Positions 1,899 to 46,118 of a DNA stretch of 64,000 nt are shown here, in pieces. Numbering within the stretch: the stretch's first letter is position 1; each line of letters opens with the position of its first letter. The stretch spans positions 1 through 64,000 of the forward strand of contig OZ223272.1 in the NCBI GenBank assembly GCA_965140585.1, given 5' to 3'. A program made the position numbers and the translations under genes. The stretch comes from Spirochaetia bacterium. GTDB lineage: Bacteria > Spirochaetota > Spirochaetia > UBA9216. The notes under the pieces were generated by a model. That model was not told the DNA's origin. It saw only the letters and a program-made list of their open reading frames with translations, and did no database searches.

Positions 1899-1899
1899 C

Positions 1900-3359
1900 T
1901 CAGTCCTTTATTCCTGCAAGGTTTTTAGCGTATTCCTTCTTGCGCTGGACATCGGCCTGTCTTGCAATCATAATCCGCTGAGCCTGGGGAGAACCTGCCC
2001 CATGCATTGACTCGGTAAGGTAGCCAACAGCTGCTCTTCCCATTGTAAGGTTTTCAATTAGGCGGAGAACCTTCATTCTCTCTACCGTATCGGTTCCTTC
2101 CGCTCCTGCGAGGTACTTTTTTACAAGATCGGCTGTTGCCGGGTTTTTAAGGTCCTTTGCATGCGGCATGGTAACCATGAGGCCGCCGGCAATGTCCTGA
2201 AGAAGTCTTGCAATTTCATAGGGAAAACGGGTTACATTCTGCTTGCAGACATTGGCCAGAAGAAGGTCGATAAGGTAGTTTCCCGCCTTCATCTTCTTTC
2301 CAAGCCATGCACATGCTGCTGCGCTTGACCATATGGTTTCATTAAGATGGTTCATCTCAACAATTTTATCTTTTACATGTGAAGCCCTTGCTGCACCGTT
2401 GTACTCGGCAATAAGCTGTGCGGCTCCAATTGCAACATCACCGACACCGGTCTTGCATGCATAGCTTGAGCGGTGGTAGCCTGCAAATCTTTCAACAAGC
2501 ATTCCTGAGAAATCATATTCACCGTCCATGAAGACCCTGTCCCATGGAACAAATACATTATCGAAAACCATCAGTGCTTCCTGGCCGCCGAAGTTGGGGC
2601 TTCCAGCGTCCATGTTGTCACCATCCGGATCTTCGATCAGCCTTGTGTCGCATGACTGACGTCCGTAGATGTATGTAATTCCCGGATCATCTGATTCTAC
2701 AGCGCAGCAGACGGCCCATTCCTTATCCTCTTCAGTCATCGTAATAGTAGGCATCACCAGTGCATGATGAGAATTGATACAGCCGGTCTGATGGGCCTTT
2801 GCACCCTTTATGACGATACCGTCTTCCCTTCTTTCAACCACATGAACATAGAGATCCGGATCTGAAAGCTGACTCGGTCTCTTTCCGCGATCACCCTTGG
2901 GGTCTGTCATACATCCGTCGACGACCAGATCCTTTTCTTCAACCTCAAGCATGTATTTCTTAAAACGCTCGTGGTAGTTTGTTCCGTATTTTTCATCCAT
3001 TTCATATGTAGTAGAAAACGTAGCGTTGAATGCATCCATTCCAACGCAGCGCTGAAAGCAGGTGCCGCATTTCTGACCGAGAAGTCTCTGCATTCCAACT
3101 TTTTATAGAGGTCTTCCGGACTCTGGTGAAGGTGGCAAAAACGGTTGATGGTCTTGCCTGAAAGAGCCGATGTAGCTGTCAGATCGTCGCGGTATTTAGA
3201 ATCTTCAGCCAGTTCATATGTGAGCGCAATTGAATTAATTGATGCCGCGATTATGGGGTGATCATAGGGATTATCAATTTTCTCCCCTGCCATGTAAACG
3301 TTTAGAGGCCTTCTGTTTCTAAGGCTTGCTCTGTACTCTTTTCCTGTCATTAATGCCAT
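1900..3359 (-). CDS. abfD: 4-hydroxybutyryl-CoA dehydratase/vinylacetyl-CoA isomerase; 1-nt indel in an A-run at ~3100
   Basis: CFQRCVGMDA, MTDPKGDR, GRQSCDTR and ESMHGAGSPQAQ motifs. The N-terminus (MALMTGKEYRASL...INRFCHL) lies in ORF 2907-3380. Confidence 0.9.
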
Positions 3360-3406
3360 AATAGTTCTCCTAAAAGTCAATTATCATTGTTCTTATGCTG
3401 TGATCA

Positions 3407-10509: not shown

Positions 10510-11798
10510 ATATCATCAGCGGAAGTGAAAAGCCCCTGCATCAAGCCTTTTTTATAGATTTTAAGTGTTTCGATTTTATCGGTTTGAGCCCTGATGAGTT
10601 CATCGAGGGATGAGAGGCAATCGGCTATTTTTTGTTGTTCAGCTGTAATAGGTACATTTATATTCAACTTTTGCAGTTGACTTGCATATAGATGGACCAC
10701 TGAAATTCCTTGAACCAGCTGCGAAATTGCTATTCTTTTTCCATTGTTTAAGTAATAAGCAAGAAAAACTCCATTCAATTTAGAACGTATAATATTAATA
10801 TCACTGCCCAACGCAATGTCACTTTTCAGAACACATGACGCAGTTGCAATATCTTCCTTTGTTTCTCCAGAGGCAGGAATGATCACATCATTTACTTTAC
10901 TAAAAATTAATTCATCAGATAAAACATTTGTAAATGATATGACTGAATTTATAGTCTCATTGTAGCGTGTGTATAATTCACCATATCTAATACATGGCCA
11001 TTTTCCATCTGGGGAAATATCTGCTTTAGCAATCCCTTTACCTTTCGAAAATGATGCAATTTTCCCAAGAGTATTCTCCTCCCACAAACCATTTTTCCTA
11101 AACTCTGGAAACTGCCATTCCGGAACGCTTTCACCCTCAGCAGGAAAGAGCTTTTGCAACAGCCCCTTTTTATGGGTTTTGTATGTTTCGAGTTTATCCG
11201 CTTCAGTAGTAATGAGTTCATCAAGAGACGTGAGACAATCAGCAATTTTTTGCTGTTCGTTTGGTTTGGGTACAACTAATTTCCCACCTAAAACAGCAAA
11301 GTTATTAACCTTCATGTCATTTTTTGCACCTTTACGAACAATTGGCTGTAAATAACTATTCAAGTTAAAGTCATTTGAAAAATAATGATCTAAATAGGTT
11401 GAGTTTCCTTTCTTTGTGGGATGGTAGACTGCATAAAGTGTAGAGACGATGCCCGGCTTGCCTTTATTTTCTTTTATGATTCCAAAAGGATTCAGTTTTA
11501 ACGGACTTTTTGTATAAACAATATCACCAGTCTCAACTACATGATAATCTTTTACGCTAAGACCGGCATATGAGCGTCCAAGCAATTCAATTTGATTTAC
11601 ACAACCATATTCTCCTGATACGGAAAGGACCTGTTCTTTACTGTATTTTAAATCACGATTCCGTGTTTTATTTTCAGTTAGTAGTTCACTCAAAGGCAAT
11701 TCTTCCCACTCCCCACTATCCCTGAACTCAGGAAATCTATACCTCGGCACTAACGCCTTCTTATTCTTACTCATCTTTCTCTTCCCATGCTTGTTCAA
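10506..11798 (-). CDS. hsdS: Type I R-M specificity subunit
   Basis: Two TRDs with repeated EQQKIADCL(T/S)SLDELI...KKGL(L/M)Q conserved regions; likely start at 11774. Confidence 0.95.
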   Translation of the reverse strand: MNKHGKRKMSKNKKALVPRYRFPEFRDSGEWEELPLSELLTENKTRNRDLKYSKEQVLSVSGEYGCVNQIELLGRSYAGLSVKDYHVVETGDIVYTKSPLKLNPFGIIKENKGKPGIVSTLYAVYHPTKKGNSTYLDHYFSNDFNLNSYLQPIVRKGAKNDMKVNNFAVLGGKLVVPKPNEQQKIADCLTSLDELITTEADKLETYKTHKKGLLQKLFPAEGESVPEWQFPEFRKNGLWEENTLGKIASFSKGKGIAKADISPDGKWPCIRYGELYTRYNETINSVISFTNVLSDELIFSKVNDVIIPASGETKEDIATASCVLKSDIALGSDINIIRSKLNGVFLAYYLNNGKRIAISQLVQGISVVHLYASQLQKLNINVPITAEQQKIADCLSSLDELIRAQTDKIETLKIYKKGLMQGLFTSADDI

Positions 11799-12795
11799 TT
11801 AAAAGTTCATGCAGTTTTTCCCGGATAAGCTTTTTATCGGGCAGCTTTAATTGATATTCGGCTATCAAAGCGGGTGATAAATTACGGGAAAGGGCGTATT
11901 CCACGACTTCATCGTCCTTGTCACGGCAAAGAAGAATGCCTATACTCGGGTTTTCATGAGCCTTTTTAACGTCCCTGTCCAGAGCTTCCAGATAAAAATT
12001 AAGCTGTCCCAGGTGGTCGGGTTTAAACTTGCCTATTTTCAATTCAAACGCTATCAGAGCAGAAAGCTCCCTGTGGAAAAATAAAAGATCAATATAAAAA
12101 TCCTGGTTGCCAACCTGCAGGCGGTATTCTTCACTTATAAAGATAAAATCTTTTCCAAGCTCAAGAATAAAGTTCTTCATATTTCTCACAAGCGATCTTT
12201 TAACCTCATTTTCATTGTGAGTCTCCGGCAACCCTAAAAACTCAAGCACATAGTTATCTTTAAAAATATGACCGATGCCAAAATGAGATTCTCTCAACAC
12301 AGGTGAGAGTTTTGTACTGCCGAAAATTGCCCGTTCAAAGTAGGCTGAATCAATTTGCCGTTCCAGTTCACGTTTGCTCAGCTTGTTCTCAATTACCATT
12401 TTAATATAGAATTCCCTTTCCGCATCTGTTTTACAGCGTGAAAAGATAGTAAGATTATGCGACCAGGGCAATTCTCTCACCAGCGGTGAGAGTTTTTCAT
12501 TCTCATGGTAGGTTTCAAAAAACTGCTTCATACGCCAGAGGTTTTTATCACTGAAACCTTTTATTCCCGGATCATTTTCATTGATATATCGGGCCAGTTC
12601 ACTTACAACACTTTTACCCCAGGAAGCTGATTTTACCTTATTACTGATGTACTCCCCTATCTGCCAGTATAATTCAATAAGTGTAGTATTGATCTGACTA
12701 TATGCTTTCTGCCGCTGCAGGTGTATCAGCTTAAGAAGGGCATCAAAATCATTTTGCATAACACTATCTTTACTCATATGCACCCAATCCGGCAA
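11767..12795 (-). CDS. YhcG/DUF1016 PD-(D/E)XK nuclease family protein
   Basis: LYWQIG, LPWSHN, YIDLLFFHR, ELKIGKF and ENPSIGILLC motifs. Confidence 0.9.
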   Translation of the reverse strand: MPDWVHMSKDSVMQNDFDALLKLIHLQRQKAYSQINTTLIELYWQIGEYISNKVKSASWGKSVVSELARYINENDPGIKGFSDKNLWRMKQFFETYHENEKLSPLVRELPWSHNLTIFSRCKTDAEREFYIKMVIENKLSKRELERQIDSAYFERAIFGSTKLSPVLRESHFGIGHIFKDNYVLEFLGLPETHNENEVKRSLVRNMKNFILELGKDFIFISEEYRLQVGNQDFYIDLLFFHRELSALIAFELKIGKFKPDHLGQLNFYLEALDRDVKKAHENPSIGILLCRDKDDEVVEYALSRNLSPALIAEYQLKLPDKKLIREKLHELLIEQAWEEKDE

Positions 12796-15766
12796 TCTCC
12801 CTCCCGCCTGCCAGCTTTTTTAACAGCGAGATCAGATCTTCCATTAATTCCAGCTCCTTCTTTGTCCGCTCTTTCCAGCTTAGCTCAAGAGGTTCCAGTA
12901 AATCGCTTAGCTTCTCGCCGTCAAATACCATACGCTCGATAATTTCATCAACAAAAGCCTGTAATACCTGAGCATCAAGTCCATATTTACGTGCAGTATC
13001 TGCCATTTCTTTCGCGGCTTTTTCAGTCTTGAACTTCTGATAACCGTCTTTTATTTCCTTTTCATTGAGGGCTTCACCGGCTTTCAGGGTATTGATGTAT
13101 GCAATAATATCTTCCCGCTCTTCCATCAGATTGGCACTGGAACAAAGCATACCAACCAGCTGTTCGCGGTTCATCTTCTGCTTCTTTGGCTCACTCTGGG
13201 TGAATTTGGAAATGAGAGACATAATATAGTCATAGTCGATGATTGCCGAGGAGAACAGTATAAACTCAAAATCCAACTGTGCAACCTCAGAATCAGGATC
13301 GGTAGTGGATTTTTGCTGCTGTTCCTTTAGCTTATGGGCAATTTCGATATAAGAACTCCTGAATGAGCGTAATTGATCCTCTGATATAAGCTCATTCATC
13401 TGCTCTTTCTGTTCAATAGTCAAATCTGTATACTGATCCAACTGTGTTTTAAGGCGCTGAACTTCCTTAAACTGATTTATAAAACTTATACGGGCAGTAT
13501 CACCTTTGAGGTTATAGACTTCTTCCGGCTCGCATGCCAGCTCCTTGTCTTTCATAAAAGCATCCAATGCGGAAACTGCTTTTTTATACTTTTCAATTAC
13601 AACAGGAGCCGGATCAACCAGCCATATTGCTTTCGATTTCCCTGTCTCCTCGCCGGAAAAAAGTGCTATAGCAGCATCCACTTCCTTAGTCTGGCTTCTG
13701 AAATCAAGAATATTGCCATAGGGTTTAGTATCGTTTAACACACGGTTTGTTCTTGAGAATGCCTGTATCAAACCATGCTGCTTTAGATTCTTATCAACGT
13801 ACAGGGTATTCAGATACTTTGAATCAAAACCGGTTAAAAGCATATCAACCACTATTGTCAAATCGATCTTATTTTTATGGGGATAATCGGCATTGCTGTA
13901 TTTATGATCTTTGATTCTTTTTTGAACATCCTGATAGTACAAATCAAATTCATTTATCCGATGATTAGTACCGTACTGCTCATTATAATCAGCAATAATG
14001 GCTTTTAAAGCCTCTTTCTTTTTCTCCGGATCCTGTTCATTATCTGCTTTTTCCTGAGGCAGATCTTCCTGAATCTGCTGAACATCCCTGTTTCCTTCTG
14101 CAGGCGGAGAAAAGACGCAAGCGATGTTCAGGGGGCGATAATTGTCATCATGCTGCATACTTTTTATCTGGATTGCTTTAAAAAGTTCATAATACTCTAT
14201 GGCATCATTTATGGATCCCGTAGCAAGCAGGGCATTGAATCGCCTTGTATTGGTAGCGGCATCGTGTTTTTCCATTATGGATTCCACAACCGCCTTTTTA
14301 TTAGCTGCATCTGATGATGCGGCTTTTTTCTTGTCATCAGGTTTAAAATAGTCAACATGAAAGCGCAGAACATTCCCGTCATCAATCGCATTAGTAATGG
14401 TATATGCATGCAGAAGTTTTTCAAAAATATCTTCGGTAGTTTTGTATGATGCCTGGGTTCCATCAATCTGCCTGTATGTTGCGTTTTCCTCAAATATAGG
14501 AGTACCTGTGAATCCGAAAAGCTGTGCCTTGGGGAAAAATTCTTTTATAGCCTTGTGATTATCCCCGAACTGTGAACGGTGGCATTCATCGAAGATGATA
14601 ACGATCCTTTTATTCCTTAGCGGCATCAACCTTTCCTTATAGGTCAGTTTACCGCTTTCTTTGCTATTCCGATTACGCTTACTGTTTTCATCCAGGGCGA
14701 GACCAAGTTTCTGGATGGTAGAGACGATAACCTTATCAGAATAATCCTCTGACAACAGGCGCTGTACCAGTGTTTCTGTATTCGTGTTCTCTTCAACACA
14801 GCCTTCCTGAAACTTATTAAATTCTTCCCTTGTCTGTTTATCGAGGTCTTTCCGGTCAACCACAAACAGGCATTTCTCAATGTCCGGATTATCCTTCAAC
14901 AGGGTTGATGCCTTGAAAGATGTCAGTGTTTTCCCGCTTCCGGTGGTATGCCAGATGTATCCATTGCCCCGGTTCTGATGAATGCAGTCCACAATAGCCT
15001 TTACTGCATAGATCTGATAGGGTCTCATGATCATCAGTTTCTGTTCGCTCACCACAAGTACCATATAACGGCTAATCAATTGGCCCAGCGTACATTTGGC
15101 AAGAAATTTCTCGGCAAAATCGTGTAGATGAGTAATTTTTTTATTGGCTTCATTAGCTAGCTGATAAATTGGTAAAAATCTTTCATCCGCATTAAATGCA
15201 AAATGATCTTTATGGTTATTGGCAAAATAGTAGGTATTGCTTTCATTACTGACAATAAAAAGCTGCATAAAACAAAGCAGAGAGTTTGTATAGCCGTTGC
15301 CCGGATCGTTTTTATATTCAACTATCTGCTCCATCGCCCGTTTGGGTGTAATTTGTAGGGTTTTAAGTTCAATCTGAACAGCAGGAACCCCGTTGATTAA
15401 AATGACTACATCATATCGATGATGGCTGTTTTCCGTATTCATTCGCAGCTGATTGATGACTTCGAACTCGTTTTTACACCAGTCTTTAATGTTTACAAGT
15501 GTATACTGAAGTGGCGTATCGTCATCTCGGCGAAAAGTGTTTGTTTCCCGCAACGTTTTAGCTGCTGTGAATACATCCGCAGTAATAATTTCATCCCTTA
15601 GCCTTGCGAACTCGGAATCACTCAGATTTACTTTATTGAGTTTTTGAAAATGGTCCCGAAAATTGACTTCAAGAGATGCTTTATCCCGTATGTCATTACG
15701 ATATGTGTATTTAAGGTCTTTTAGTTTTAAAATAAAATCTTCTTCAATCTGCTGTTCTTTTTTCAT
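12770..15766 (-). CDS. hsdR: Type I R-M restriction subunit
   Basis: QIELK nuclease motif; HTTGSGKT, DECHRSQ, FTGTP, MLLTGFD and QAFSRTNR helicase motifs. Confidence 0.95.
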   Translation of the reverse strand: MKKEQQIEEDFILKLKDLKYTYRNDIRDKASLEVNFRDHFQKLNKVNLSDSEFARLRDEIITADVFTAAKTLRETNTFRRDDDTPLQYTLVNIKDWCKNEFEVINQLRMNTENSHHRYDVVILINGVPAVQIELKTLQITPKRAMEQIVEYKNDPGNGYTNSLLCFMQLFIVSNESNTYYFANNHKDHFAFNADERFLPIYQLANEANKKITHLHDFAEKFLAKCTLGQLISRYMVLVVSEQKLMIMRPYQIYAVKAIVDCIHQNRGNGYIWHTTGSGKTLTSFKASTLLKDNPDIEKCLFVVDRKDLDKQTREEFNKFQEGCVEENTNTETLVQRLLSEDYSDKVIVSTIQKLGLALDENSKRNRNSKESGKLTYKERLMPLRNKRIVIIFDECHRSQFGDNHKAIKEFFPKAQLFGFTGTPIFEENATYRQIDGTQASYKTTEDIFEKLLHAYTITNAIDDGNVLRFHVDYFKPDDKKKAASSDAANKKAVVESIMEKHDAATNTRRFNALLATGSINDAIEYYELFKAIQIKSMQHDDNYRPLNIACVFSPPAEGNRDVQQIQEDLPQEKADNEQDPEKKKEALKAIIADYNEQYGTNHRINEFDLYYQDVQKRIKDHKYSNADYPHKNKIDLTIVVDMLLTGFDSKYLNTLYVDKNLKQHGLIQAFSRTNRVLNDTKPYGNILDFRSQTKEVDAAIALFSGEETGKSKAIWLVDPAPVVIEKYKKAVSALDAFMKDKELACEPEEVYNLKGDTARISFINQFKEVQRLKTQLDQYTDLTIEQKEQMNELISEDQLRSFRSSYIEIAHKLKEQQQKSTTDPDSEVAQLDFEFILFSSAIIDYDYIMSLISKFTQSEPKKQKMNREQLVGMLCSSANLMEEREDIIAYINTLKAGEALNEKEIKDGYQKFKTEKAAKEMADTARKYGLDAQVLQAFVDEIIERMVFDGEKLSDLLEPLELSWKERTKKELELMEDLISLLKKLAGGREIAGLGAYE

Positions 15767-35365: not shown

Positions 35366-36724
35366 TTATAGCTTTTCTTTATGCATTTTGTTAAGCAGTT
35401 TTAATTCCTTTACCGCCATCGGCAGGGTGAGGATAAAACTCAGAATATCAGCAAGAGGCTGTGCAATTGCCACACCGTTGATTCCAATAAACCGGGGAAG
35501 AATCAGCATAGCCGGGATAAGAAAAAGCCCCTGCCTTGCCGATGAAAGAACTCCGGCCTGAAGCCCCTTTCCATGAGCCTGAAACATTGCAGCAAAGCAG
35601 TTCTGAACTCCGACAAAGATAAGGGTAATACTGGCGAATCGCATGAATTTTATTCCGGCTGTCATCACCTCCGGATCGGAGGTAAAAATCCCTACAATAA
35701 ATCTGGTAAAAACCAGAAAAACTGTTGACATAAAAAGCCCGAAAACGGTGTTCCAGGAGACCGCCTTTTTAACCGTTTGAATTACCCTGTCATACTGCCT
35801 TGCGCCGTAATTGAATCCGGCAAGAGGCTGAAGGCCCTGTCCTATACCGAAGAAAACCATCATAGTCAGTGAAACGACCCGCAGAGTAATTCCCACTCCG
35901 GCAACCGCGTAGTCGCCGAACATGGATGCGGCAAGATTTGTAACTCCCATTGCACCGCTTGTAAGAAGCTGTCTGATTAATGTCGGGGTTCCGATAGCCA
36001 TAATCTGTTTGTACATAGCCGCTGTAGGTGAAAAATCCTTCAGCCGCAGCTTAAGGATGCCTTTTGAGAAAACAAAATATCGGAGAAGGTAGAGCGTGCT
36101 TATAAGCTGGGCAGTAATGGTTGCAGCGGCTGCACCGGCAAGCCCCATCTTAAAAACAAACATAAAAACGGGATCAAGAATCATGTTAAGACCGCCGCCT
36201 AATATCAAGCCGCGGCTGCTGTAACCGGCAGCACCTTCGGCACGAAGCATATTGTTCAGGCACATGTTTATAATCTGAAAAACCGAACCGCCGATGATAA
36301 TCCTGCCGTAAATTACAGCCCTGTCCATTATGGAATCGGTTGCCCCGAAAATCCGGAGTAAAGGTACAATGAAAATATTGCCAAGCACGGCGAAGGCTAT
36401 TCCAATAACCAGGGTTGTATAGAAGGCGGTTGAAGCCGAAGCCCTTGCTTCTTTGGGCTTTTCCTCACCGAGCTTTCTTGAAATCATTGAACCGGCCCCC
36501 ATGCCGAAAGTCAGTCCGATTGCTCCGATAAGCATAAATATCGGAAAAACGACTGCAGAAGCGCCTATTGAAGGTGTATCATTTAACAGGCCAATAAAAG
36601 CGGTATCTACTACATTGTAAACGGCATTAACAAGCATGGCTGTTGCGGCGGGGACGGCAAGGTTTCTGAGTGCGGCGCCAATATTCCCGCTTCGAAGCAT
36701 TTCGGTTCGTTCATTTTTATCCAT
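35366..36724 (-). CDS. MATE family efflux transporter
   Basis: YNVVDTAFIG, NMILDP and GLQPLAGFNYGA motifs; start MDKN at 36724. Confidence 0.92.
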   Translation of the reverse strand: MDKNERTEMLRSGNIGAALRNLAVPAATAMLVNAVYNVVDTAFIGLLNDTPSIGASAVVFPIFMLIGAIGLTFGMGAGSMISRKLGEEKPKEARASASTAFYTTLVIGIAFAVLGNIFIVPLLRIFGATDSIMDRAVIYGRIIIGGSVFQIINMCLNNMLRAEGAAGYSSRGLILGGGLNMILDPVFMFVFKMGLAGAAAATITAQLISTLYLLRYFVFSKGILKLRLKDFSPTAAMYKQIMAIGTPTLIRQLLTSGAMGVTNLAASMFGDYAVAGVGITLRVVSLTMMVFFGIGQGLQPLAGFNYGARQYDRVIQTVKKAVSWNTVFGLFMSTVFLVFTRFIVGIFTSDPEVMTAGIKFMRFASITLIFVGVQNCFAAMFQAHGKGLQAGVLSSARQGLFLIPAMLILPRFIGINGVAIAQPLADILSFILTLPMAVKELKLLNKMHKEKL

Positions 36725-36740
36725 ATGAAATTCAGGATAC

Positions 36741-37151
36741 TTGGCGATGAAAAACAAATCAAGTAATATGAGGAAAGTATTTTCGGAGTTGCCGATGATT
36801 GAGAACACTTATCTGGATAAATTTAAAAATCTGCCTGAAGACCCTGCCGCCGAGGCTATAAAACAGACAGCCGGAGAACTTGAAATGCTCAGCTTCAGCC
36901 CTACACTACTGATAGATACACCTGATTTTCTGTTCTTCACAAAGACCGGAATTATAGCTGAAGCAGAAAGAGTTGCAGGGTTTCCGGATGAAAAACTGCC
37001 TGAGTTCAGCAATGAAAGTTTTAATGATTCAAATGATTTCCGCAGAAAGCACATTGATCTTCTATATTATTACTACGAGCTTCTCTCAAGGCTAAGACTT
37101 AATATACCGGAAGCCTGGGACTATGTGCATGAACTTTATGAGGATGACTGA
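36741..37151 (+). CDS. Hypothetical protein
   Basis: ORF fills the gap between MATE and the membrane module; acidic C-terminus EAWDYVHELYEDD. Confidence 0.6.
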   Translation: MAMKNKSSNMRKVFSELPMIENTYLDKFKNLPEDPAAEAIKQTAGELEMLSFSPTLLIDTPDFLFFTKTGIIAEAERVAGFPDEKLPEFSNESFNDSNDFRRKHIDLLYYYYELLSRLRLNIPEAWDYVHELYEDD

Positions 37152-37170
37152 GCAGATTTGATGATGTAAA

Positions 37171-39057
37171 TCATTTTCTAATCATTACATCTTCATACAG
37201 TGCAAGATGCCAGCCTTCAAGGTTCGAGAAGGCTTTTCGTTCCGGGCTTTTAATCGTCCCTATGCCTGAAGTTTCAAGAAATTTTCTGATAGTCTGAATT
37301 CTTTTATATATTTTCTGGTAATGGGCACAGGAACTGGCTTTGCAGCCAAGGGAACAGCCCTCTGCGGTTTCGGGCTCAAGGTGCTCAAGGATTTCGGAAC
37401 AGTAGAGGGTCTCATCGTCCTTGGTAAGCAGCATTTTAAGTATTTCCATATTTGTCTCACTCAACCCTGCAAGCAGAGGTCTGCCCATAAAAAGAACACT
37501 GCCGTTTCTCTGTTCAAGAAGCTTTCCGGGCAGGGTAAAAAATATTACTGACAGCACAAAGAATATAATCAGAAGAATACGGTCGGCCATGACGGCCAGG
37601 ATATCAGGTATAAACCTGTCTGTTGCCTGAAACCCGGCAGACAGGGGCATATCCCTGGAAATAGAGAGAATAACCATAAAAAACCAGATCAGCCAGTAAA
37701 TAATGCCTGAAGTTCTGTCCCTGTTTATCAGTCTGCCGCTTCTGAATTCCACCGCGGGGACCCCTAGAAGAAAAATAATCGTACATATAACAAAATTACG
37801 AATTCCCGAGAAGAGCGCAAATATTTCATCATGCCGGTTAAGAGAGTAAGCAAGAAAAAACAGAAACACTGCAGAAATAATCTGTGTCCGGAAGATAATT
37901 TTCCGTTTTCTGATAAACAGAGGCAGAACCAGAATAGATAAGACCATGCAGAAGAGAATAATAAATTTCATACGGCTGTTTACCGGTGTCTCGAAGGCGA
38001 AAAGCAGGGAACCGCTGACCGCAATGATTACGGAAAGGATAAACCAGACAGGACCAGGTTTTTTCCTTGGTTTCACAGTATTCAGAACAGCTTTTTCTGA
38101 AAGAAGGGCTGAAAAACTACCTTCGGTAATATCCCTGAACACAGATTTTGTCCTTCTATGTTCTACAGCAACATCAGGATAGAGAATAAGACCCCAGCCT
38201 TCCTCAACCACATTACGTTTGTTTTCGGGGGGGATAATCATGCCAATACCGTAGTTCTCGAGTTTCTTTCCAAGATCAGTTACATAGCGATAGACTGCAG
38301 CGTATCCGGGACACAGCGACGCCTTGCAGGCGGCAACGTCATCACAATTCATGCCTTTAAGATCCGCCCCAGTGCTCCGGAAATAATCACGGCAGCGTAT
38401 ATTCCTGCCCTGCTCCACAGCAGCAGTCAGCATCTGTATCTGGGGCTCGTTAAATGAGGCGGTAATATCCTCATTCCTGAAGAAGAGTCTGCCTTTGAAA
38501 AAAATCAGCTTCTTTGAGGCGCTGCTTTTCAGGTTCATCAGAAACAGTACGGCCGGAATATAATTGGCGGCCTCATAAAACCCCGAAACAAGCTTCCAGG
38601 GTTCAGCTATCTGATGGCTGGAAAATAGAAAATAGATTCTCATAAATAGAAGCATCAGCGAGTATGATGCAAGCAGAATGATGATAAAATTCAATCCGCG
38701 GATCAGCTGGTCAAAGACCTGCCGCCTGAAGAAACGGAAAATCAGGCTGTAACTCAGAGCAAGAAGCGGGCCCGGATAGTAGAATAAAAACATGGAATAG
38801 TAAGCTCTGTCGAGTAGAAATCCGGAGGCAGTTCCTGTTGCTGCAATCCAGAAAAATATAAGTATTGAAAATCCGACAACCCTGCTTCTGGATTTTATAC
38901 AGAAAAGAATCAGAATGAGTCCAAACTGGATAAAAAACAGGAATAGACTGTACGCCGCCGAAAACCCGTTTCGTCCATCCATTGTCAGCCCTGTAATCAG
39001 TACGGGAATAGAGGAGTATAAGGAAAGAAGTACGGATATAATTGAAGGCTTTCGCAT
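37171..39057 (-). CDS. Membrane protein with two tandem [~6 TM + Cys-containing winged-helix-like] units
   Basis: Internal duplication: C..C..CKASLCPGY..Y....LE..GIG.I.PPE...EGW.L.LY.DV versus C..C..CKASSCAHY..IYKRI..FLE..GIG.I.SPE...EGW.L.LYEDV. Paralog at 42952-44774. Confidence 0.8.
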   Translation of the reverse strand: MRKPSIISVLLSLYSSIPVLITGLTMDGRNGFSAAYSLFLFFIQFGLILILFCIKSRSRVVGFSILIFFWIAATGTASGFLLDRAYYSMFLFYYPGPLLALSYSLIFRFFRRQVFDQLIRGLNFIIILLASYSLMLLFMRIYFLFSSHQIAEPWKLVSGFYEAANYIPAVLFLMNLKSSASKKLIFFKGRLFFRNEDITASFNEPQIQMLTAAVEQGRNIRCRDYFRSTGADLKGMNCDDVAACKASLCPGYAAVYRYVTDLGKKLENYGIGMIIPPENKRNVVEEGWGLILYPDVAVEHRRTKSVFRDITEGSFSALLSEKAVLNTVKPRKKPGPVWFILSVIIAVSGSLLFAFETPVNSRMKFIILFCMVLSILVLPLFIRKRKIIFRTQIISAVFLFFLAYSLNRHDEIFALFSGIRNFVICTIIFLLGVPAVEFRSGRLINRDRTSGIIYWLIWFFMVILSISRDMPLSAGFQATDRFIPDILAVMADRILLIIFFVLSVIFFTLPGKLLEQRNGSVLFMGRPLLAGLSETNMEILKMLLTKDDETLYCSEILEHLEPETAEGCSLGCKASSCAHYQKIYKRIQTIRKFLETSGIGTIKSPERKAFSNLEGWHLALYEDVMIRK

Positions 39058-39746
39058 CAGCTGCCCCTTCCGCCGAATGCCAGTCTTGCTACAATTATCG
39101 GAGTGATAAAAAACAGGACTGACAGGACACCGTACTCAGGATATGTTATTGCAATAATTACTGCTGCAAAGCTGGCCGGAAGAGCGTCGGCATAATAGGG
39201 TTTGAATACATCAATAAGGTATCGGAAAAAAGAACGGCCTTCTTCAAGTCTGTAAAAAAGGGCGTTGAAAACACAGGAAACCAGAAAGAAAACAGGGGCG
39301 GTGATTAAAGCCGGAAGGATGGAGGTTCCTCCTGCTGCAGCCGCTGTATATATGTAGAGCCGATCCACCAAAAAAAGAATTATTATAAAATGCGAAACAT
39401 TAAAAATAGTCAGTCTGGGCGGTGTTGTAAGAATATAACTGAGGCCTTTCTCCTGTTTTCGTACGGTAAAAAGTGCTGTAGCAAGTATGCAGAACAAAGA
39501 AGCAACAGGCCCGCCGGAGAGGTAGGCTCCGAAAAAAACAGCCTCTATTGTTGAGATATAGATGTTTCCGCTGGAAATATACACCGAGAAGGATTCACTT
39601 AAAACAGCAAGAACAGACCAGACGATAATAACAGAGATACTGTAATCGGCAGGCTGACTTCCTGAAAAAATAAGAATTGCGCACAGAACAGCTGCTGTGG
39701 AAATAATGATAAGAAAAAGCAGAGCGCCGCGCGGATAAACATTCAT
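39057..39746 (-). CDS. Stand-alone 7-8 TM membrane sensor-like protein (resembles the N-terminal membrane domain of HD-GYP proteins)
   Basis: AVLSES...YISTIEAVF..G..L.GGP...FN.SH...PIIVARL; stop overlaps the downstream ATG. Paralog at 42258-42955. Confidence 0.75.
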   Translation of the reverse strand: MNVYPRGALLFLIIISTAAVLCAILIFSGSQPADYSISVIIVWSVLAVLSESFSVYISSGNIYISTIEAVFFGAYLSGGPVASLFCILATALFTVRKQEKGLSYILTTPPRLTIFNVSHFIIILFLVDRLYIYTAAAAGGTSILPALITAPVFFLVSCVFNALFYRLEEGRSFFRYLIDVFKPYYADALPASFAAVIIAITYPEYGVLSVLFFITPIIVARLAFGGRGS

Positions 39747-40044
39747 AAATCAAAACTCCACAACTCGTTTCCGGACGAATTTGTAAAGAAACATGTTAAA
39801 CAAAGCTGAAACGGAAAGCTGCGTCCTGCCTCTATGATACATTTTCAAAAGGACAACAGTCAACAAAAACGCAAAAGTATCGGGAGAAAAATTATGAACC
39901 GGAGCAAAAAGTGCAGTTTTAAAGAAACTAAAATTTAAAATATGGCAGTCAAGGCTGAATATAAACAGCCGGATTTAATCGCCCTGTTGAAGAAAGAAGC
40001 CTCCAGAACTATACTGACTGATGTAAATCCGGAGGCATCTTTTT

Positions 40045-41295
40045 ATGGACAGCAGTCTTTCATCATTACTTTCAAATCTCGGCCTTGGCAACTCTCTTGC
40101 TGGTATTCTGAGTATACTTCTTCTTTTTGCCGGACTGATTTTAGCAAGCCTTATCCTTAATTTTATAATCAGCAGAATTGTAATATCAATTCTTTCCCGC
40201 ACGGTTAAACGCACGAAAACAAAGTGGGATGACATACTGCTTGAAACAGGGCTTTTTCAGAAGGCTGTAAAGATAGTCCCCGGACTGTTTCTATATTTCA
40301 GCTTTCCCCTTGTTTTCCGGGAAGCCGGCAGCCTTGAATCATGGTTTCAGAGACTGGTACTTGCCTACATAATCCTTGTTGTTCTGAATGTATTCAACTC
40401 CTTTCTTACCGGAGTAAACCGAATATATACTACCTATGATATTTCCAAAAACAGGCCAATCAAGGGCTACCTGCAGATCGTCAGAGTCATTGCCGCCATT
40501 ATGGTGATTGTTCTGGTCATCTCGATCCTGATCGACCGATCAGCCCTCGGATTGCTGTCGGGAATCGGAGCCCTTTCGGCAGTTCTTATGCTGGTATTCA
40601 AGGATTCAATACTCGGGCTTGTAGCCGCCATTCAGCTGTCGGGAAACGATATGGTAAGAATCGGCGACTGGATTAGCGTGCCGGACCAGGGCGCGGACGG
40701 TGATGTAATTGATATCAAGCTCCAGACAGTTACCGTACAGAATTTCGATAAAACCATAGTAAGTGTGCCCATCTACAATCTAATTTCAGGTTCATTTACA
40801 AACTGGCGCGGGATGAGTGAATCCGGCGGGCGAAGGATAAAGAGGCATATTAATATAGATATGAACAGCGTTAAATTCTGCACTGATGACATGCTGGAAG
40901 ATTTCCGGCAAATTGATCTCATTAGTGATTTCATACCAAAGAAAAAAGAAGAGATTGATGCCCATAATGCAGGAAAGGGGGTCAATACCGCCCGCGAACT
41001 CAACGGACGTCGGATGACCAACCTGGGAGTCTTCAGGGCCTACCTTGCAGCTTACCTGCGGGATAATCCAGCCATACACGAAAATATGACCTTCCTTGTC
41101 CGCCAGCTTCAGCCGACCGACAAGGGTATCCCGTTGGAAATATACGTATTCAGCCGTGACCAGGTCTGGGCGAACTACGAAAACATACAGGCAGATATAT
41201 TCGATCATATACTTGCCTCAATACCCTTCTTCGAGCTTGCAGTGTTTCAGTCTCCATCAAGCCTTGATTTCAGAAAGAGTTTTGCCGGGAAATAA
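40045..41295 (+). CDS. Mechanosensitive channel, MscS family (YbdG/MscM-like)
   Basis: FKDSILGLVA, VRIGDWI, NWRGMSESGGRRIKR and VRQLQP motifs. Confidence 0.93.
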   Translation: MDSSLSSLLSNLGLGNSLAGILSILLLFAGLILASLILNFIISRIVISILSRTVKRTKTKWDDILLETGLFQKAVKIVPGLFLYFSFPLVFREAGSLESWFQRLVLAYIILVVLNVFNSFLTGVNRIYTTYDISKNRPIKGYLQIVRVIAAIMVIVLVISILIDRSALGLLSGIGALSAVLMLVFKDSILGLVAAIQLSGNDMVRIGDWISVPDQGADGDVIDIKLQTVTVQNFDKTIVSVPIYNLISGSFTNWRGMSESGGRRIKRHINIDMNSVKFCTDDMLEDFRQIDLISDFIPKKKEEIDAHNAGKGVNTARELNGRRMTNLGVFRAYLAAYLRDNPAIHENMTFLVRQLQPTDKGIPLEIYVFSRDQVWANYENIQADIFDHILASIPFFELAVFQSPSSLDFRKSFAGK

Positions 41296-41399
41296 TCAAC
41301 TTAGTTGTTTCCGTACGATAGTACTCTCAATTTATTGAAAAGTGACATTCTTTATAATATCCATATCATAAAGAATGTTAATTTTGAGAGGAAAGTAAT

Positions 41400-42146
41400 A
41401 TGAAAAAAACTATCATCCTTATTTTATGCTTTTTAACAGTATTATTCTCAGCATGCGATCCAGACGCCGGAGCGGATCTGCCTGAAGAAAAACCGACCGA
41501 ATCTACAGGCACACCTGCTCCGACACCCAGTGTATCCGAGCCTATCGTGTACTGTGCCGGGATAGACGGAACAACCGGAGTCTACTGGAAGGATAACGGT
41601 TATGATGCCATAGAACTGGTAGTCCTTGAACACGGATGGACTTCCGGTGCTGAATCAGACTCTACTGTGAACGATATATTGGTTTCCGACGGAAAAGTAT
41701 ACATGGCAGGAGTCTATTTGGACACAGATACTCCATATCCGCAGGCAAGTCTGTGGACTGCTGACACTGATACTTCCTCACCAAATATAGTCAGAACTAC
41801 TCTGTCTAATGACAATAAACAAGCAGAGGCTAAAGCTGTTTTTGTCTACAGCACCGATGTTTATATATGCGGCTCAGGAGAGAGAGATACAAGCACTTCA
41901 AAGGCCATGTACTGGAAAGACAGGGAAATAAAGGAAGTCATCGGTGCCCCGGAAGGTTCACATGCTGTGGCAATCGCGGTTCCCAGCGCCAATGTTTACA
42001 CAGCAGGTTCTCATGGTATTGAATCCTACACTGCAACAAACGGACCGACTACCACTGTAGCCGCTTATTGGATGGACAATATTAAGTATGATCTTACAAA
42101 TGGGTCAGAAAATGCCCATGTATATGATATGACAGCTGTACGATAG
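41400..42146 (+). CDS. Lipoprotein with repeated VY.AG...YWKD beta-propeller-like units
   Basis: Lipobox LFSAC, P/T linker, repeats GVYWKDN, ASLWTAD, AMYWKDR and AAYWMDN. Confidence 0.75.
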   Translation: MKKTIILILCFLTVLFSACDPDAGADLPEEKPTESTGTPAPTPSVSEPIVYCAGIDGTTGVYWKDNGYDAIELVVLEHGWTSGAESDSTVNDILVSDGKVYMAGVYLDTDTPYPQASLWTADTDTSSPNIVRTTLSNDNKQAEAKAVFVYSTDVYICGSGERDTSTSKAMYWKDREIKEVIGAPEGSHAVAIAVPSANVYTAGSHGIESYTATNGPTTTVAAYWMDNIKYDLTNGSENAHVYDMTAVR

Positions 42147-42173
42147 GAATCACAGTGTTTAAAGGGTAAAGTA

Positions 42174-42205
42174 AAAGCCTGCGGCAGTCTCCGCAGATTT
42201 TCTTT
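42174..42205 (+). terminator. Probable intrinsic terminator after the lipoprotein gene
   Basis: CTGCGG-cagtct-CCGCAG followed by ATTTTCTTT. Confidence 0.5.
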
Positions 42206-42206
42206 A

Positions 42207-42235
42207 TTGACGGACTCAAAAATATCTCCTATTGT
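42207..42235 (+). promoter_or_regulatory. sigma70 promoter of the second membrane module
   Basis: TTGACG-N17-TATTGT followed by SD GGGGAG and ATG 42258. Confidence 0.55.
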
Positions 42236-42257
42236 TTTAGGGGAGAAAAACAATTTA

Positions 42258-42955
42258 ATGGAATCCCGAAAACTAAAAGTATATCTTTTTTATCAGTATT
42301 AAGCGTATCTGCAGCAGCAATTCTTATATTCACCGTAAAGAAGTCTGATTTTACAGCATTGGTTCCGGCAGATATCATCATCTGGACTATTGCAGCTGTA
42401 CTAAGCGAATCACTCGCAATCTATTATGTGAACGGCAGCTTCTTTATCTCACCGATAGAAGCTGTTTTCTGCGGATGCCTCCTGTCCTGCGGACCGCTAA
42501 CCGCGGCAATCACAATATCTCTTACTTTTCTGTTAATAATAACAAAGGATGAAAACCGCTTTTGGCATGTCTTTAACACAGCAGGAAGATATATACTGTT
42601 AAATATATCGCATCATATACTGATTATGCTTGTTCTGTATCATGGCTATCATTTTATGACTACTTCAACAGCAAAGTTTCAGATCATTACTGCGATGATT
42701 ATTGCACCTTTATTCTTTACTCCATCCTGTTTGATCAATGCATTTTTCTACAAGGTTGAAGACGGAGAACCTGTCAAGCAGGCCTTCCTTGATATGTTCG
42801 ATCCTTATTATCAGACTGCTGTTCCGGCAAGCCTTGCAGCGGTAATAATTGCTATGGCATATGCAGAATACAGATATTTTGCAATTCTGATACTCATTTC
42901 ACCATTTATTGTAACACTTATCACGATGAGATCGGAAGCGAGGAAAAGCCGTTGA
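42258..42955 (+). CDS. Paralog of the 39057-39746 membrane protein; 1-nt indel in T-run at ~42290
   Basis: AVLSESLAIY..G..FISPIEAVF and PASLAAVIIA..Y.EY are shared with the first copy; N-terminus MESRKLKVYLF. Confidence 0.75.
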
Positions 42956-44774
42956 AACTCCTGCTTATTTTATACACCTCACTTCCGGCTCTGATAGCAG
43001 CAGTAATTTCAGCAGATAATTTATTTGTAAACGTATCAGGCACAGCCCTTTTTATCCTGCAAATAGTTATTGAGTTCTTTCTTCTCAACCTGGAAAAGAA
43101 ACGTCCCCTTATTATTATGACTTCAGTGCTTGCAGCGTTTTTTTCAGCCATAGTGATCTTTAGCGGATTTATTCATCAATTGATTTATTTCAGACTTTTA
43201 ATCAATCTATACCCGGGCCCTCTTCTTACAATTATCTTTGTTCTGATATTTAAACTTTCCCGTTCCCAGGATTTCTCAAAGCCGTCAAAAGGGCTGAACC
43301 GCCTTATACTTCTTCTCTTTTCGTATTCAGCTATGCTCATAATATTGCTGATACATAGCCTCCTGCAGACACCGTTGTCTGCAGGAGAAACTCTGTTGAA
43401 GCTTTATGAGGCTTTTAACTATCTACCAGCCGTTTACTTTCTATGGAAGCTTAAAAACGCATTCCTTTCACACATATTTATCGAAAATGATGAGATCAGA
43501 TATAGAAACGAAGATATTTCGTCATTTTTCAGCGAAATAGAATTATCAATCCTGAAAAAACTTATTACAGGAAGCGGAAGAATCCGATGCCGTGACATTG
43601 TTCCCATATTAAACAATAATAATGAACGCAGACAGTTTAACTGTTCTCCGGGCTCCAAGCTGGCAACAGACTGTCCAGCCTATCCGATTATATACAGGTA
43701 TATAAAAAGTCTTGATAAAAACCTCGGAAACCTGAGCATTGGAATGATTATTCCGCCTGAAAACAGAAAAAATGTGATTGAACTGGGCTTGTTCTTCAAG
43801 CCGGAAAAGGGTGTTCAGATTGTTAAGCGCAGGCCTTTTCCATTGCGAATTCCTGTTGTCAGTGAAGTATACAAGTCAGAGTCCCGGACTGATTCGGGAT
43901 TGATAACCATGCTCCTGCTTTGCATTACCGGCAGCTCCGCGCTGGCTGTTGAAGCCGTATACGGAGCAGAAGGAACACTGACCGGGGTTATCGTACCGCT
44001 TCTGATTGCAGCATTCTGTTTCATTATTATTTTTACGCTGGGCAGACCGGTAAAAGTAACAGGAAAATCCATAATAATTTCGATTAACTCGTTGGTAATA
44101 ACTACGTTTTTATTTATTAGTATACTCTCAGAACAGGAAGTTCTGATGCTGGCGATGAAAGCAATTGTACTATTCGTTCTTTGCTTGTTCCCAGTCTTGA
44201 GAAGCGCAGTAATATCAGCATGCTGAGAGAAAGAGCCTCCGACTGGCTATTCTGGCTCATATGGTTTTATATGGTGCTGCTGGCACTGTTTATTGAACCC
44301 GGGCTCACATTCGGCATCAGCAGCACTGGAATGAATCCCCCTATATTCCTGTCATTCTTCATTAACAGAATAATGTTACTACTGCTGTTCTCTCTTTCTG
44401 CACGATTCTTCAGTATGCCTCAAAAACCTCTTGTCATTAAAGATTCCATTCTGTAATTGAACGAACGACCGCTTCCTGCCTGTTCCGGAAAGGATAATTT
44501 TATAATTATTAGAGAATTCATAAACAATCATGAAGCACCCCTTCATTGCTACCGAATTCTGGACATGCTGAATAAAGAAGAAAGATCAGACTGCGGCGGG
44601 TACTGTAAATCGAGTATCTGCCCCCACTACCAGAAAATTTATAAAAGGATACAAACAATACGGAAATATTTTCAAACCACGGGAATAGGAACAGTGACAA
44701 GCCCGGAGCGGAAGGCTGAATCACATCTGGAAGGATGGAGCCTTGTTCTGTATGATGATGTCTATATAAAGTAA
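42952..44774 (+). pseudogene. Paralog of the 37171-39057 tandem TM/Cys-wHTH protein, interrupted by a frameshift (~44180) and an in-frame TAA (44454-44456)
   Basis: ORFs 42952-44226, 44181-44456 and 44457-44774 align consecutively with the 628-aa paralog (YPGPLL, YEAFNY.PAV, IGMIIPPEN, WLIWF.MV, HYQKIYKRIQTIRK). Confidence 0.75.
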
Positions 44775-44847
44775 AACCTTCGGAAACGGCTTATGAACGA
44801 TATGAGGCGGTATATCCACAACAAGGCTGAACTGATATACTTGGACC

Positions 44848-45402
44848 ATGAAAATAGCAGAAAAGACAACAGTAACGTTAAACTACATTTTAAAGGCAAA
44901 AGACGGCACCGTCCTGGAAACTACCAGTGAACAGGGTCCTGTAACAATACTCTTCGGTCACGAAATGTTCCCCAAGGCGGTAGAAGCAGCACTTGAAGGA
45001 AAATCAGCCGGAGATTCCGTGACAATTGAACTCGAAGCAAAAGACGGCTTCGGCGAAGTAATTGATGAATACATTGCCCAGGTTCCGATTTCTGAATTTG
45101 ATCAGCCTGAAAACCTTGAGGTTGGAATAGATATTATTGCCAGCGACGGTGAAAAAGAGATGATTGTGACGGTAAAAGCAATTGACGACGACATGGTTAC
45201 AATTGATGCCAATCACCCTTTTGCCGGAATGGATATCACCTTTGAAATGGGTGTAATGGAAGTCCGTGAAACAACAGAGGAAGACCTGGCCCACTTTTAT
45301 CATGACCATGATCACGAATGCGGCTGCGGATGCGGTCATGAAGGTGATGATGACTGCGGCGACGGCTGTGGTGATGAAGGCTGCTGCGGAAGCTGCGGCT
45401 GA
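44848..45402 (+). CDS. slyD: FKBP-type peptidyl-prolyl isomerase with His/Cys-rich tail
   Basis: IDANHPFAG motif; tail HDHDHECGCGCGHEGDDDCGDGCGDEGCCGSCG. Confidence 0.93.
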   Translation: MKIAEKTTVTLNYILKAKDGTVLETTSEQGPVTILFGHEMFPKAVEAALEGKSAGDSVTIELEAKDGFGEVIDEYIAQVPISEFDQPENLEVGIDIIASDGEKEMIVTVKAIDDDMVTIDANHPFAGMDITFEMGVMEVRETTEEDLAHFYHDHDHECGCGCGHEGDDDCGDGCGDEGCCGSCG

Positions 45403-46118
45403 AAAGAAAACTGCAGGCGCTTTCCTGCTGTTTACAGAGTCTGGAGGATAGGATAATATTATCGGGATTTACTACTTTTAATAATACATCAGGGATAAAT
45501 CCCTGATGTAGAATTTCACTATAATTCCAGTACAATTGGGAAATTTTCTATTTTAACTGGATTAAACCACCAACATTATCGTTCAAGCTCGTAAGAATAT
45601 AATAAATCAAGCCGAGAGCATGTCTAATAAAATGGAAATATTGCTAAATTTTTGAAAAATTGATTCTATTTTCTTCGCCACAGTCCATCATCTGCATACT
45701 CTTCATTTATTAAAAATAAATCAACTTTGGTATTCTTTATCGATACAGGAAAATTTAACTGCATGACTTATACACACCTCATAGCGCTCATAAATCCGTT
45801 TTCTAACCCCCTCGACACCAATTACGAAAGCATTTGCGTCTCCATCTTTTCTATTTCTATTTATCTCTGCCAATTTGAGCAAGTCACATAGGTGTGGGTG
45901 GGGGTTGAGATAAACATCACAGTTATTTTCCTTACAATATTCCCAGGTCTGTACACAACTATCAGCAAAAAGTAATGCCTGGGAAACAGCCCATTGAACA
46001 CTGTAAGGGTAACCGTCCTTTCCCGGATACACACCAGGTCCGAATACACCATACCCCCCAAAAAACATAATTCTATGTTTTTGCCCTCTATCCATAACTT
46101 CAAAGGAATAATTTAAGC
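45363..46118 (+). repeat. Direct repeat copy 1 (slyD 3' end, intergenic region and 3' part of the MBL gene)
   Basis: Matches 63245-64000 at an offset of 17882 bp; about 20 differences by manual comparison. Confidence 0.95.
45485..45510. terminator. Inverted repeat between convergent slyD and MBL genes
   Basis: TACATCAGGGAT-aa-ATCCCTGATGTA; also present at 63367-63392. Confidence 0.5.

Follow-up and report, generated by a model that had tools for sequence, protein, structure and literature searches.

A spirochaete membrane protein with two divergent OmpR/PhoB-type winged helices and a conserved cysteine insertion, a putative one-component regulator of an undescribed family

Positions 1 to 64,000 of contig OZ223272.1 from a Spirochaetia bacterium (assembly GCA_965140585.1), the whole stretch of 64,000 nucleotides referred to here as the window, carry on the reverse strand a gene for a membrane protein with two soluble domains of the OmpR/PhoB winged-helix type, each bearing a cluster of cysteines. 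We propose that this protein is a transcription regulator of the one-component type, polytopic in the inner membrane and belonging to an undescribed family, and put the probability of this reading as a whole, including its metal, partner and target, at about 0.6. In the family unit a block of six membrane helices would precede a cytoplasmic winged helix of OmpR/PhoB type, in which a four-cysteine knuckle replaces the loop that otherwise joins helix 2 to the recognition helix, a position that we take to be that of the 'transactivation loop' of PhoB. A full-text literature search gave no description of such a protein in those parts of the texts that were available.

OmpR/PhoB winged helices are among the commonest DNA-binding outputs of bacteria, and we know them as domains of response regulators, as the N-terminal domains of ToxR-like proteins or as SARP-type domains. 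A polytopic membrane block that comes first, with the winged helix last, would add a fourth arrangement to these. We also know of no earlier conserved Cys4 (probably metal) site within the loop between helices 2 and 3, which is presumably the surface by which PhoB contacts RNA polymerase. The family is of interest as a compact form of membrane-sensor-to-DNA signalling, as a natural single-chain 'dimer' and as a possible case of DNA binding checked by metal or redox state, and its recognition would allow about 150 clusters of membrane proteins now called 'hypothetical' to be annotated.

The relationship to the OmpR/PhoB family is seen in a profile-profile comparison with hhalign, in which 150 near-full-length domain instances (from 166 domain matches, the 16 partial ones being dropped) were set against the aligned DNA-binding domains of ten Escherichia coli K-12 OmpR-family genes. 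The score was 33.7 (P=1.1e-5, probability 81.6%, 89 columns), compared with 12.0 for the reversed template and 14.5 or less for 30 column-shuffled templates, 31 controls in all. The alignment path starts in the N-terminal strands, passes L(S/T)..E..(I/L)L, then helix 2, then I..(I/L)(K/R)K.LE, and reaches the G-aromatic pair of the wing, where the 'GW' of the family falls on the 'GY' of the OmpR family. The cysteine segment, which separates helix 2 from the recognition helix, falls in a gap of the OmpR profile and is thus an insertion.

Structure prediction leads to the same fold. The AlphaFold 2 (AF2) model of module 2, the second membrane block with its domain, was made from a 93-sequence alignment and has a mean predicted local distance difference test score (pLDDT) of 81.9, with 84-97 in the domain. 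Domain B follows the order b-b-b-a1-b-a2-loop-a3-b-(short helix)-b-b: a1 spans residues 534-545 and is joined by a one-residue bridge to a2 (553-560), a 17-residue loop leads to a3 (578-596), and a strand, a short helix (608-614) and two further strands complete the domain. Foldseek against the PDB gave high-probability matches to SaeR, PhoB, AdeR, PhoP, RstA, ArlR, GlnR and RpaA, as well as VanR, CosR, EmbR and CadC, and to the winged helix of Bacillus subtilis PurR; more than 20 OmpR-family chains matched with probabilities of 0.94-1.0 and target-normalised template-modelling (TM) scores of 0.52-0.68 over about 100-110 columns. The three nearest clusters in a language-model comparison are likewise of OmpR/PhoB type (0.87-0.88), to be read only as a lead. 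A preliminary description of this DNA, made by eye, had proposed an OmpR/PhoB-like winged helix, and the profile score with its controls, the element order of the models and structural neighbours drawn nearly all from OmpR-family DNA-binding domains bear it out. We hold the assignment to this fold with high confidence.

The family is a small one. An exhaustive HMMER search of 1.84 billion cluster representatives with a profile built from the four domains in the window returned 153 matches at E<=1e-3, of which 100 reached E<=1e-10 and 14 reached E<=1e-30, and the best 150 of the 153 together with the window's own protein make up the 151 proteins analysed. Fifteen of these have two domains and are about 560-670 residues long, and most of the others are about 280-350 residues long with one C-terminal domain, which puts the single-module group at roughly 135 clusters. 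Against Pfam and NCBIfam neither the whole proteins nor the four domains scored above threshold, the weak matches to Fijivirus_P9-2, SitA6, HTH_20, DUF1706 and Peptidase_C39 being dismissed as noise, and the 93 module sequences (module 2 from the window and 92 single-module proteins) share no consistent Pfam family. Sequence searches of the PDB gave no match with the four-domain profile and six with the 93-sequence module profile, all in the transmembrane part and at E>=0.35. In a word-index search the full protein found only itself and one protein of 89% identity, and the module alignment found five proteins, all called 'hypothetical'; a tblastn search with the single-module member P0022 gave no plasmid match. 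The search of species-representative genomes for related loci, made with a five-sequence alignment, reached only the double-module spirochaete group and yielded five loci (L001 to L005), all in Spirochaetia metagenome-assembled genomes (Sediminispirochaeta, Marispirochaeta, Spirochaetales and Spirochaetia). In one double-module protein of the family, P0029 (628 residues), the second domain is degenerate and has lost its cysteine cluster, recognition helix and wing, from which it follows that domain B can decay while domain A is kept.

The spirochaete protein repeats one unit twice. Its 628 residues are laid out as six transmembrane helices and domain A, a disordered linker, and six transmembrane helices and domain B; residues 1-180 and 336-511 are hydrophobic, and 182-300 and 512-628 soluble. 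The full-length AF2 model (pLDDT 76.8) has 12 transmembrane helices, gives domain A the same order of secondary-structure elements as domain B, and falls below a pLDDT of 50 in the linker at residues 303-330. The two domains share 29% identity (BLASTP E=2e-14). The module 1 membrane block is homologous to the block of the single-module proteins (hhalign probability 97.7%, P=1.5e-12, 177 columns), and that of module 2 has diverged much further (P=6e-4 against the single-module block, P=0.012 against module 1). Since its membrane part is thus related to that of the single-module proteins, the spirochaete protein represents a tandem duplication of a [6 transmembrane helices + domain] unit. The ratio of nonsynonymous to synonymous substitution (dN/dS) is 0.084 relative to the 89%-identical ortholog in locus L001, and the gene is under purifying selection.

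The preliminary description had counted four domains, two of them in this gene, and a hidden Markov model (HMM) of the domain run on the six-frame translation of the window recovers exactly four. The strings that it quoted are all present; domain A reads CRDY...NCDDVAACKASLC and domain B NGSVLFMGRPLLAGLSETNMEILKMLL...CSEILEHL...CSLGCKASSC AHYQKIYKRIQTIRKFLE..GIGTI..EGWHL. The span that it gave, 37171-38514, begins at domain A, and the gene continues to 39057. It made no mention of the 12 transmembrane helices, of the duplicated [6 transmembrane helices + domain] module or of the conserved membrane-protein gene directly upstream.

In the AF2 model the helices of module 1 lie at residues 6-26, 32-53, 57-81, 84-109, 112-146 and 153-180. 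With six helices ahead of each domain, the N-terminus lies on the same side of the membrane as the two domains. The loops between the AF2 helices hold 26 Lys/Arg residues on the domain side and 8 on the opposite side, so that by the positive-inside rule both winged-helix domains are predicted to be cytoplasmic. A DNA-binding domain and a Cys4 metal site both require such a placement. A Foldseek search with the full-length model gave no credible structural analogue of the transmembrane blocks (probability <=0.23).

Three of the cysteines are almost invariant among the 150 domain instances: C553 (C222 in domain A) is Cys in 150, C568 (C238) in 149 and C577 (C249) in 150. A fourth is found only at column 76, three residues before C568 in a CxxC arrangement, in 105 instances and only at column 93 (C572, or C244 in domain A) in 36. 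One instance has both, and eight have neither, six of which keep at least four cysteines at shifted positions. At least four cysteines are thus present in 148/150 domains, the two exceptions being the A domains of the second paralog in the window and of the family member P0003. The spacing subtype tracks the architecture, with C-xn-C-x4/5-C in 30 of the 31 double-module domains and CxxC-x9-C in 76 of the 94 single-module domains. AF2 places C553 at the first residue of helix 2, C568 and C572 in the a2-a3 loop and C577 just before helix 3. These positions and the insertion in the hhalign path agree with the preliminary description, which had the cluster directly ahead of the recognition helix, and the counts answer the question of conservation in homologues. 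A tetrahedral metal site would account for a fourth ligand that shifts within one turn of a fixed ligand while the count remains four, and the cysteine pattern suggests such a site.

The surface that would read DNA carries polar or basic residues on a3. In the hhalign register, domain B of the main protein (B1) places Q581, K582, K585, R586, T589, R591 and K592 on PhoB R193, T194, V197, H198, R201, R203 and K204, respectively, which we take from the 1GXP literature to be the DNA contacts of PhoB. Along a3 the 150 instances have Y580 in 145, R/K at 581 in 112, N/K/R at 585 in 143, K/R at 591 in 131 and K/R at 592 in 132. Compared with that of OmpR the wing is extended, and it includes a short helix as well as a conserved P-E-N-K-R stretch.

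Directly upstream of the regulator gene lies a partner gene for a polytopic membrane protein. A homologue occupies this position in both cassettes of the window and in 4/4 related loci with sufficient flank, the contig of L002 being too short to judge; partner and regulator genes overlap in most loci. The partner has a dN/dS of 0.097 and is under purifying selection. Its transmembrane helices carry conserved polar residues (LSES, EAVF, N-x-SH and S-C-x-x-N-A), and its language-model features match MASE9 clusters (0.95, with 218/256 shared), the ten best family-bearing matches being in agreement. Galperin and Chou (bioRxiv 10.1101/2021.11.05.467447) describe MASE9 (PF20972) as a promiscuous sensor domain of membranes that is fused on the N-terminal side of HD-GYP or GGDEF-EAL outputs and has polar residues inside its transmembrane helices. 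The partner shares such residues, whereas it stands alone. No longer, fused form of the partner was found in a search that gives weak evidence on this point, and comparisons of the partner with the transmembrane blocks of the regulator found no relationship. Upstream of the partner gene is a promoter-like site, and L001 and the Marispirochaeta locus L003 both preserve its two hexamers. Between this site and the partner start codon sits an inverted repeat, one arm of which is a perfect palindrome in L003, GAAACATGTTTC, and RNAalifold folds the leader into a stem with three compensatory pairs, from only three sequences. The repeat is a candidate for either an autoregulation operator or an RNA hairpin, and a scan of positions 36500-45500 with Rfam gave only a sub-threshold microRNA match.

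Together these features suggest how the protein might work. The four cysteines would bind one metal ion, most likely a structural Zn2+, and so fix the start of the recognition helix. Since the spirochaete protein has two units per chain, it would itself supply both of the DNA-binding domains that are otherwise brought together by OmpR-family dimerisation, and the two domains of one chain may bind two half-sites as OmpR-family dimers do; the single-unit relatives would have to pair up. Together with the membrane blocks, the MASE9-like partner would sense a membrane-borne signal; inside the membrane it could serve the regulator as co-sensor or modulator in the way that ToxS serves ToxR. The signal would alter the presentation of the two winged helices to membrane-proximal DNA. 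As the first candidate target we propose the operon's own promoter and leader, which are conserved.

Several results weigh against this proposal. Trans_reg_C (PF00486) has a gathering score of 26.2, which no domain in the window reaches: the best, B1, scores 12 bits (E=0.23) over profile positions 6-39 only, the other three have no match at all, and none of the 93 single-module members matches the model. HMM-to-sequence comparisons of the family with the OmpR domains of E. coli stay below 8 bits in both directions, and the Foldseek E-values, obtained with a query that contained the transmembrane block, are 0.1-0.5 with none <=1e-3. We treat the family as a very divergent branch of the OmpR/PhoB winged helices, lying outside Pfam Trans_reg_C. 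The cysteine loop of domain A is modelled with a pLDDT of only 52-60 in the full-length protein, and in a crude hydropathy count over 92 single-module proteins the Lys/Arg bias is only slight, at 0.171 against 0.148. At the position of PhoB R201 the protein has T589, and most family members have E/D; the domains as a whole are not basic, with 16 K+R, 15-16 D+E and a net charge near zero. The MASE9 HMM is not matched by any of seven partner homologues even at E<=10, so that 'MASE9-like' denotes a lead and not membership. No operator was found: GAAACATGTTTC occurs twice in the window with <=2 mismatches, where 4.6 occurrences are expected, which means that the window gives no regulon signal.

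Alternative explanations concern the role of the cysteines, the side of the membrane on which the domains lie and their binding to DNA. A structural zinc at the Cys4 site has, in our estimate, somewhat better than even prospects, and an Fe-S cluster is a possible but less favoured occupant; zinc is preferred because membrane sensor elements are already present and the spacing of no known Fe-S regulator is matched. The preliminary description had proposed a redox- or metal-sensitive domain that binds Zn or an Fe-S cluster. It may be, though we doubt it, that the four-cysteine site is the sensor, as an Fe-S cluster or as a Zn-thiolate labile to redox change, in which case oxidation, nitric oxide (NO) or loss of the metal would switch DNA binding. 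FNR, WhiB-like and RsrA-type proteins are redox or metal switches of this kind. All four conserved cysteines adjoin the start of the recognition helix, so that loss of a cofactor should move the helix. The last cysteine is followed by proline in 63/150 instances and preceded by a conserved lysine and Ser/Thr, and such residues are met around Fe-S ligands. There is a single CxxC knuckle, compared with the two typical of zinc ribbons, and the organism looks anaerobic, with an aldehyde:ferredoxin oxidoreductase gene in the window and an Fe-hydrogenase gene beside the L004 copy. A second sensor would however be superfluous next to a six-helix membrane block for each domain and a sensor-like partner; the A domains of paralog 2 and of P0003 do with three cysteines; and the spacings correspond to no Fe-S regulator motif known to us. 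Cys4 metallo-regulators such as WhiB-like proteins and FNR (Fe-S) and RsrA (Zn-thiolate) likewise have four conserved cysteines beside an element that contacts DNA or RNA polymerase, but their folds and cysteine spacings are different, whereas here the site is inserted into an OmpR-type domain of a membrane protein. A speculative extension, which we rate as improbable, is that the insert is an Fe-S cluster labile to O2 or NO, placed where PhoB touches RNA polymerase and gating a membrane-tethered OmpR-type regulator, the spirochaete form being a covalent pseudo-dimer on a two-half-site operator at the membrane. If that were true, a cluster-gated family would join a membrane signal (through the six-helix block and the MASE9-like partner) and the cytoplasmic redox state in one polypeptide.

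We give almost no credence to a periplasmic location of the domains in which the cysteines would pair as two disulfides that stabilise an extracytoplasmic domain. The even number of conserved cysteines would fit such pairs, and hydropathy counts of transmembrane helices in the single-module proteins are noisy, scattering from 4 to 7, but the six AF2 helices before each domain and the charge distribution of the loops speak for the cytoplasm, a fourth cysteine that moves about near C568 suits a common ligand sphere better than fixed disulfide partners, and the OmpR-type fold is, to our knowledge, cytoplasmic in every case. We also regard it as unlikely that the winged helix is a cytoplasmic module for protein-protein or ligand contacts rather than for DNA, in a membrane protein with another main task, for example one that regulates a transporter or channel or provides the partner with a scaffold. 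The near-zero net charge, the acidic residue at the R201 equivalent in most members and the lack of an identified operator would all be compatible with such a module, as would the extra short helix in the wing, unseen in the OmpR-family matches, and neighbours that vary beyond the partner, with MscS and MATE genes in the window and other genes elsewhere. Against it, the face of a3 (Y580 and positions 581, 591 and 592) is the best-conserved surface of the domain, the 'GW' of the family aligns with the wing 'GY', all the high-probability structural neighbours are DNA-binding domains, and the transmembrane blocks resemble no transporter in the Foldseek search. A DNA-binding regulator with a structural metal site is the reading that we retain.

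Read as such a regulator, the protein can be set beside known systems. With the OmpR/PhoB effector domain (PF00486; PhoB 1GXP/1GXQ, SaeR 4U88/4IXA, PhoP 2PMU, RstA 4NHJ) the family shares its fold and element order, the long a3 that ends in a basic I..(L/I)(R/K)K.LE, and a beta-hairpin wing with G-aromatic. It differs in lying below every sequence threshold, in the four-cysteine insertion that replaces the a2-a3 loop, in a longer wing with a short helix, and in having a six-helix membrane block in place of the receiver domain. ToxR-like proteins consist of an N-terminal winged helix, one transmembrane helix and a periplasmic sensor. The present layout departs from this, since a polytopic membrane block precedes the winged helix, which is C-terminal, and a sizeable periplasmic domain is lacking. 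The Cys4 insert and the tandem duplication in the spirochaete form are further differences, and the partner is polytopic and unrelated to ToxS. What is held in common with ToxR/ToxS, TcpP/TcpH, CadC and PsaE/PsaF is an OmpR-type winged helix on the inner membrane and a partner membrane gene next to the regulator gene, with which it is probably co-transcribed; the domain of CadC (5ju7) is itself among the Foldseek matches. For ToxR/ToxS, CadC and PsaE/PsaF see PMC7496328, PMC5430869 and PMC8407435.

A second cassette lies divergently in the window. The main protein and the paralog ORF (open reading frame) are 35% identical over module 1 (BLASTP E=8e-44); the C-terminal domain of the paralog (B2; domain HMM E=7e-30) is 52% identical to B1 (BLASTP E=4e-38), and the two partners are 41% identical. 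The preliminary description had spoken of two paralogs, and a second copy with two cysteine domains is indeed present, but in three ORFs split by a frameshift and an in-frame TAA, not as a single intact gene. The intact ortholog (609 residues, L001:237-2066, reverse strand, 92.5% nucleotide identity) locates the lesions: a 10-bp deletion near 44187 and the TAA at 44454-44456, where L001 reads GAC. In the partner of cassette 2, a T6 run near 42286 stands against T7 in L001, with the loss of about 34 N-terminal codons. Fragment 1 has a dN/dS of 0.28, compared with 0.084 for the intact main gene. As a 10-bp deletion and a stop that requires several substitutions are unlikely to be sequencing errors, we conclude that cassette 2 is in decay in this genome.

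These results bear on a further suggestion, namely that the two paralogs read the same operator because their C-terminal recognition helices are identical. The identity itself is confirmed, with the 14 residues HYQKIYKRIQTIRK common to B1 and B2. The conclusion drawn from it is weakened, since domain B carries the YQKIYKRI helix throughout the family, in different genera, and paralog 2 is intact in the 92.5%-identical relative and broken here; with a broken paralog 2, the idea of a shared operator fails for this organism as sequenced.

Synonymous divergence (dS) from L001 differs several-fold between the cassettes, being 0.71 and 0.45 for the genes of cassette 1 and 0.13-0.37 for the pieces of cassette 2; recombination or gene conversion could account for this. 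Split genes are also found elsewhere in the window (919-3380, reverse strand), where an HpaB-like 4-hydroxyphenylacetate hydroxylase occupies ORFs 1900-3093 and 2907-3380 and an acetyl-CoA hydrolase/transferase lies in the pieces 919-1530 and 1527-1898. They reflect either many pseudogenes in the genome or indel errors in the assembly, and so bear on the reading of the single-base difference in the T run near 42286. Directly downstream of cassette 2 (44848-45402, forward strand) is a gene for an FKBP-type (SlyD-like) peptidyl-prolyl isomerase (Pfam FKBP_C, E=8e-7); its C-terminal tail, HDHDHECGCGCGHEGDDDCGDGCGDEGCCGSCG, abounds in His, Cys, Asp and Gly. In SlyD a tail of this kind binds Ni/Zn, and the gene is a possible metal link to the Cys4 domains.

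Table 1. Positions of the two regulator cassettes and their parts in the window (aa, amino acids; TM, transmembrane).
Feature	Coordinates	Strand	Remarks
Main gene	37171..39057	-	single ORF, 628 aa
Module 1 membrane block	38515..39057	-	aa 1-181, six TM helices (AF2)
Domain A, OmpR/PhoB-like winged helix	38158..38514	-	aa 182-300; Cys222, Cys238, Cys244, Cys249
Cys cluster of domain A	38311..38394	-	C222...C238-x5-C244-x4-C249
Module 2 membrane block	37525..38052	-	aa 336-511, six TM helices (AF2); invariant W455, W458
Domain B, OmpR/PhoB-like winged helix	37174..37524	-	aa 512-628; Cys553, Cys568, Cys572, Cys577
Cys cluster of domain B	37327..37401	-	C553, C568, C572, C577
Predicted recognition helix a3, domain B	37270..37326	-	aa 578-596, AHYQKIYKRIQTIRKFLET; AF2 helix, hhalign to PhoB 191-205
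Partner gene	39057..39746	-	229-aa polytopic membrane protein; stop overlaps main-gene start (ATGA)
Inverted repeat in leader	39762..39799	-	TTAACATGTTTC ... GGAAACGAGTT; three-locus alignment
Promoter-like site	39834..39863	-	TTGACT-18-TATCAT, from scan; upstream of partner gene
Partner gene of cassette 2	42258..42955	+	open ORF from TTG 42359; ancestral ATG near 42258 cut off
Paralog 2 fragment 1	42952..44226	+	424 aa; module 1 with domain A2 and part of module 2
Domain A2	43468-43824	+	CSPGSKLATDC, three Cys; invariant Trp replaced by Leu
Paralog 2 fragment 2	44181..44456	+	91 aa, other frame; ends at in-frame TAA 44454-44456
Paralog 2 fragment 3	44457..44774	+	105 aa; domain B2 (44457-44771), CGGYCKSSIC, four Cys

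Beyond the partner, the neighbours of the regulator are not conserved between loci. Between the divergent cassettes of the window (40045-42146, forward strand) lies a gene for an MscS-type mechanosensitive channel, with a 95% identical copy in L001 that is flanked there by two FGE-sulfatase-domain genes. A 248-aa lipoprotein-like ORF, also between the cassettes, has no family and no counterpart in a BLAST search of the locus ORFs of L001-L005. On the other side of the regulator gene and convergent with it is a 136-aa ORF (36741-37151, forward strand), which lacks a Pfam family and is conserved in L001 (85% identity); its start overlaps the first codons of a MATE gene on the opposite strand. 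In L003 (11790-16424, reverse strand) the cassette lies near genes for NicO (a Ni/Co transporter), DUF1007, a DtxR-type repressor and FeoB, and in L002 a MASE3-domain gene follows the regulator (2160-2651, forward strand). Farther away in the window, positions 8857-15766 (reverse strand) hold a complete type I restriction-modification system (HsdM, HsdS and HsdR), with a gene for a YhcG/DUF1016 PDDEXK nuclease between those for HsdS and HsdR.

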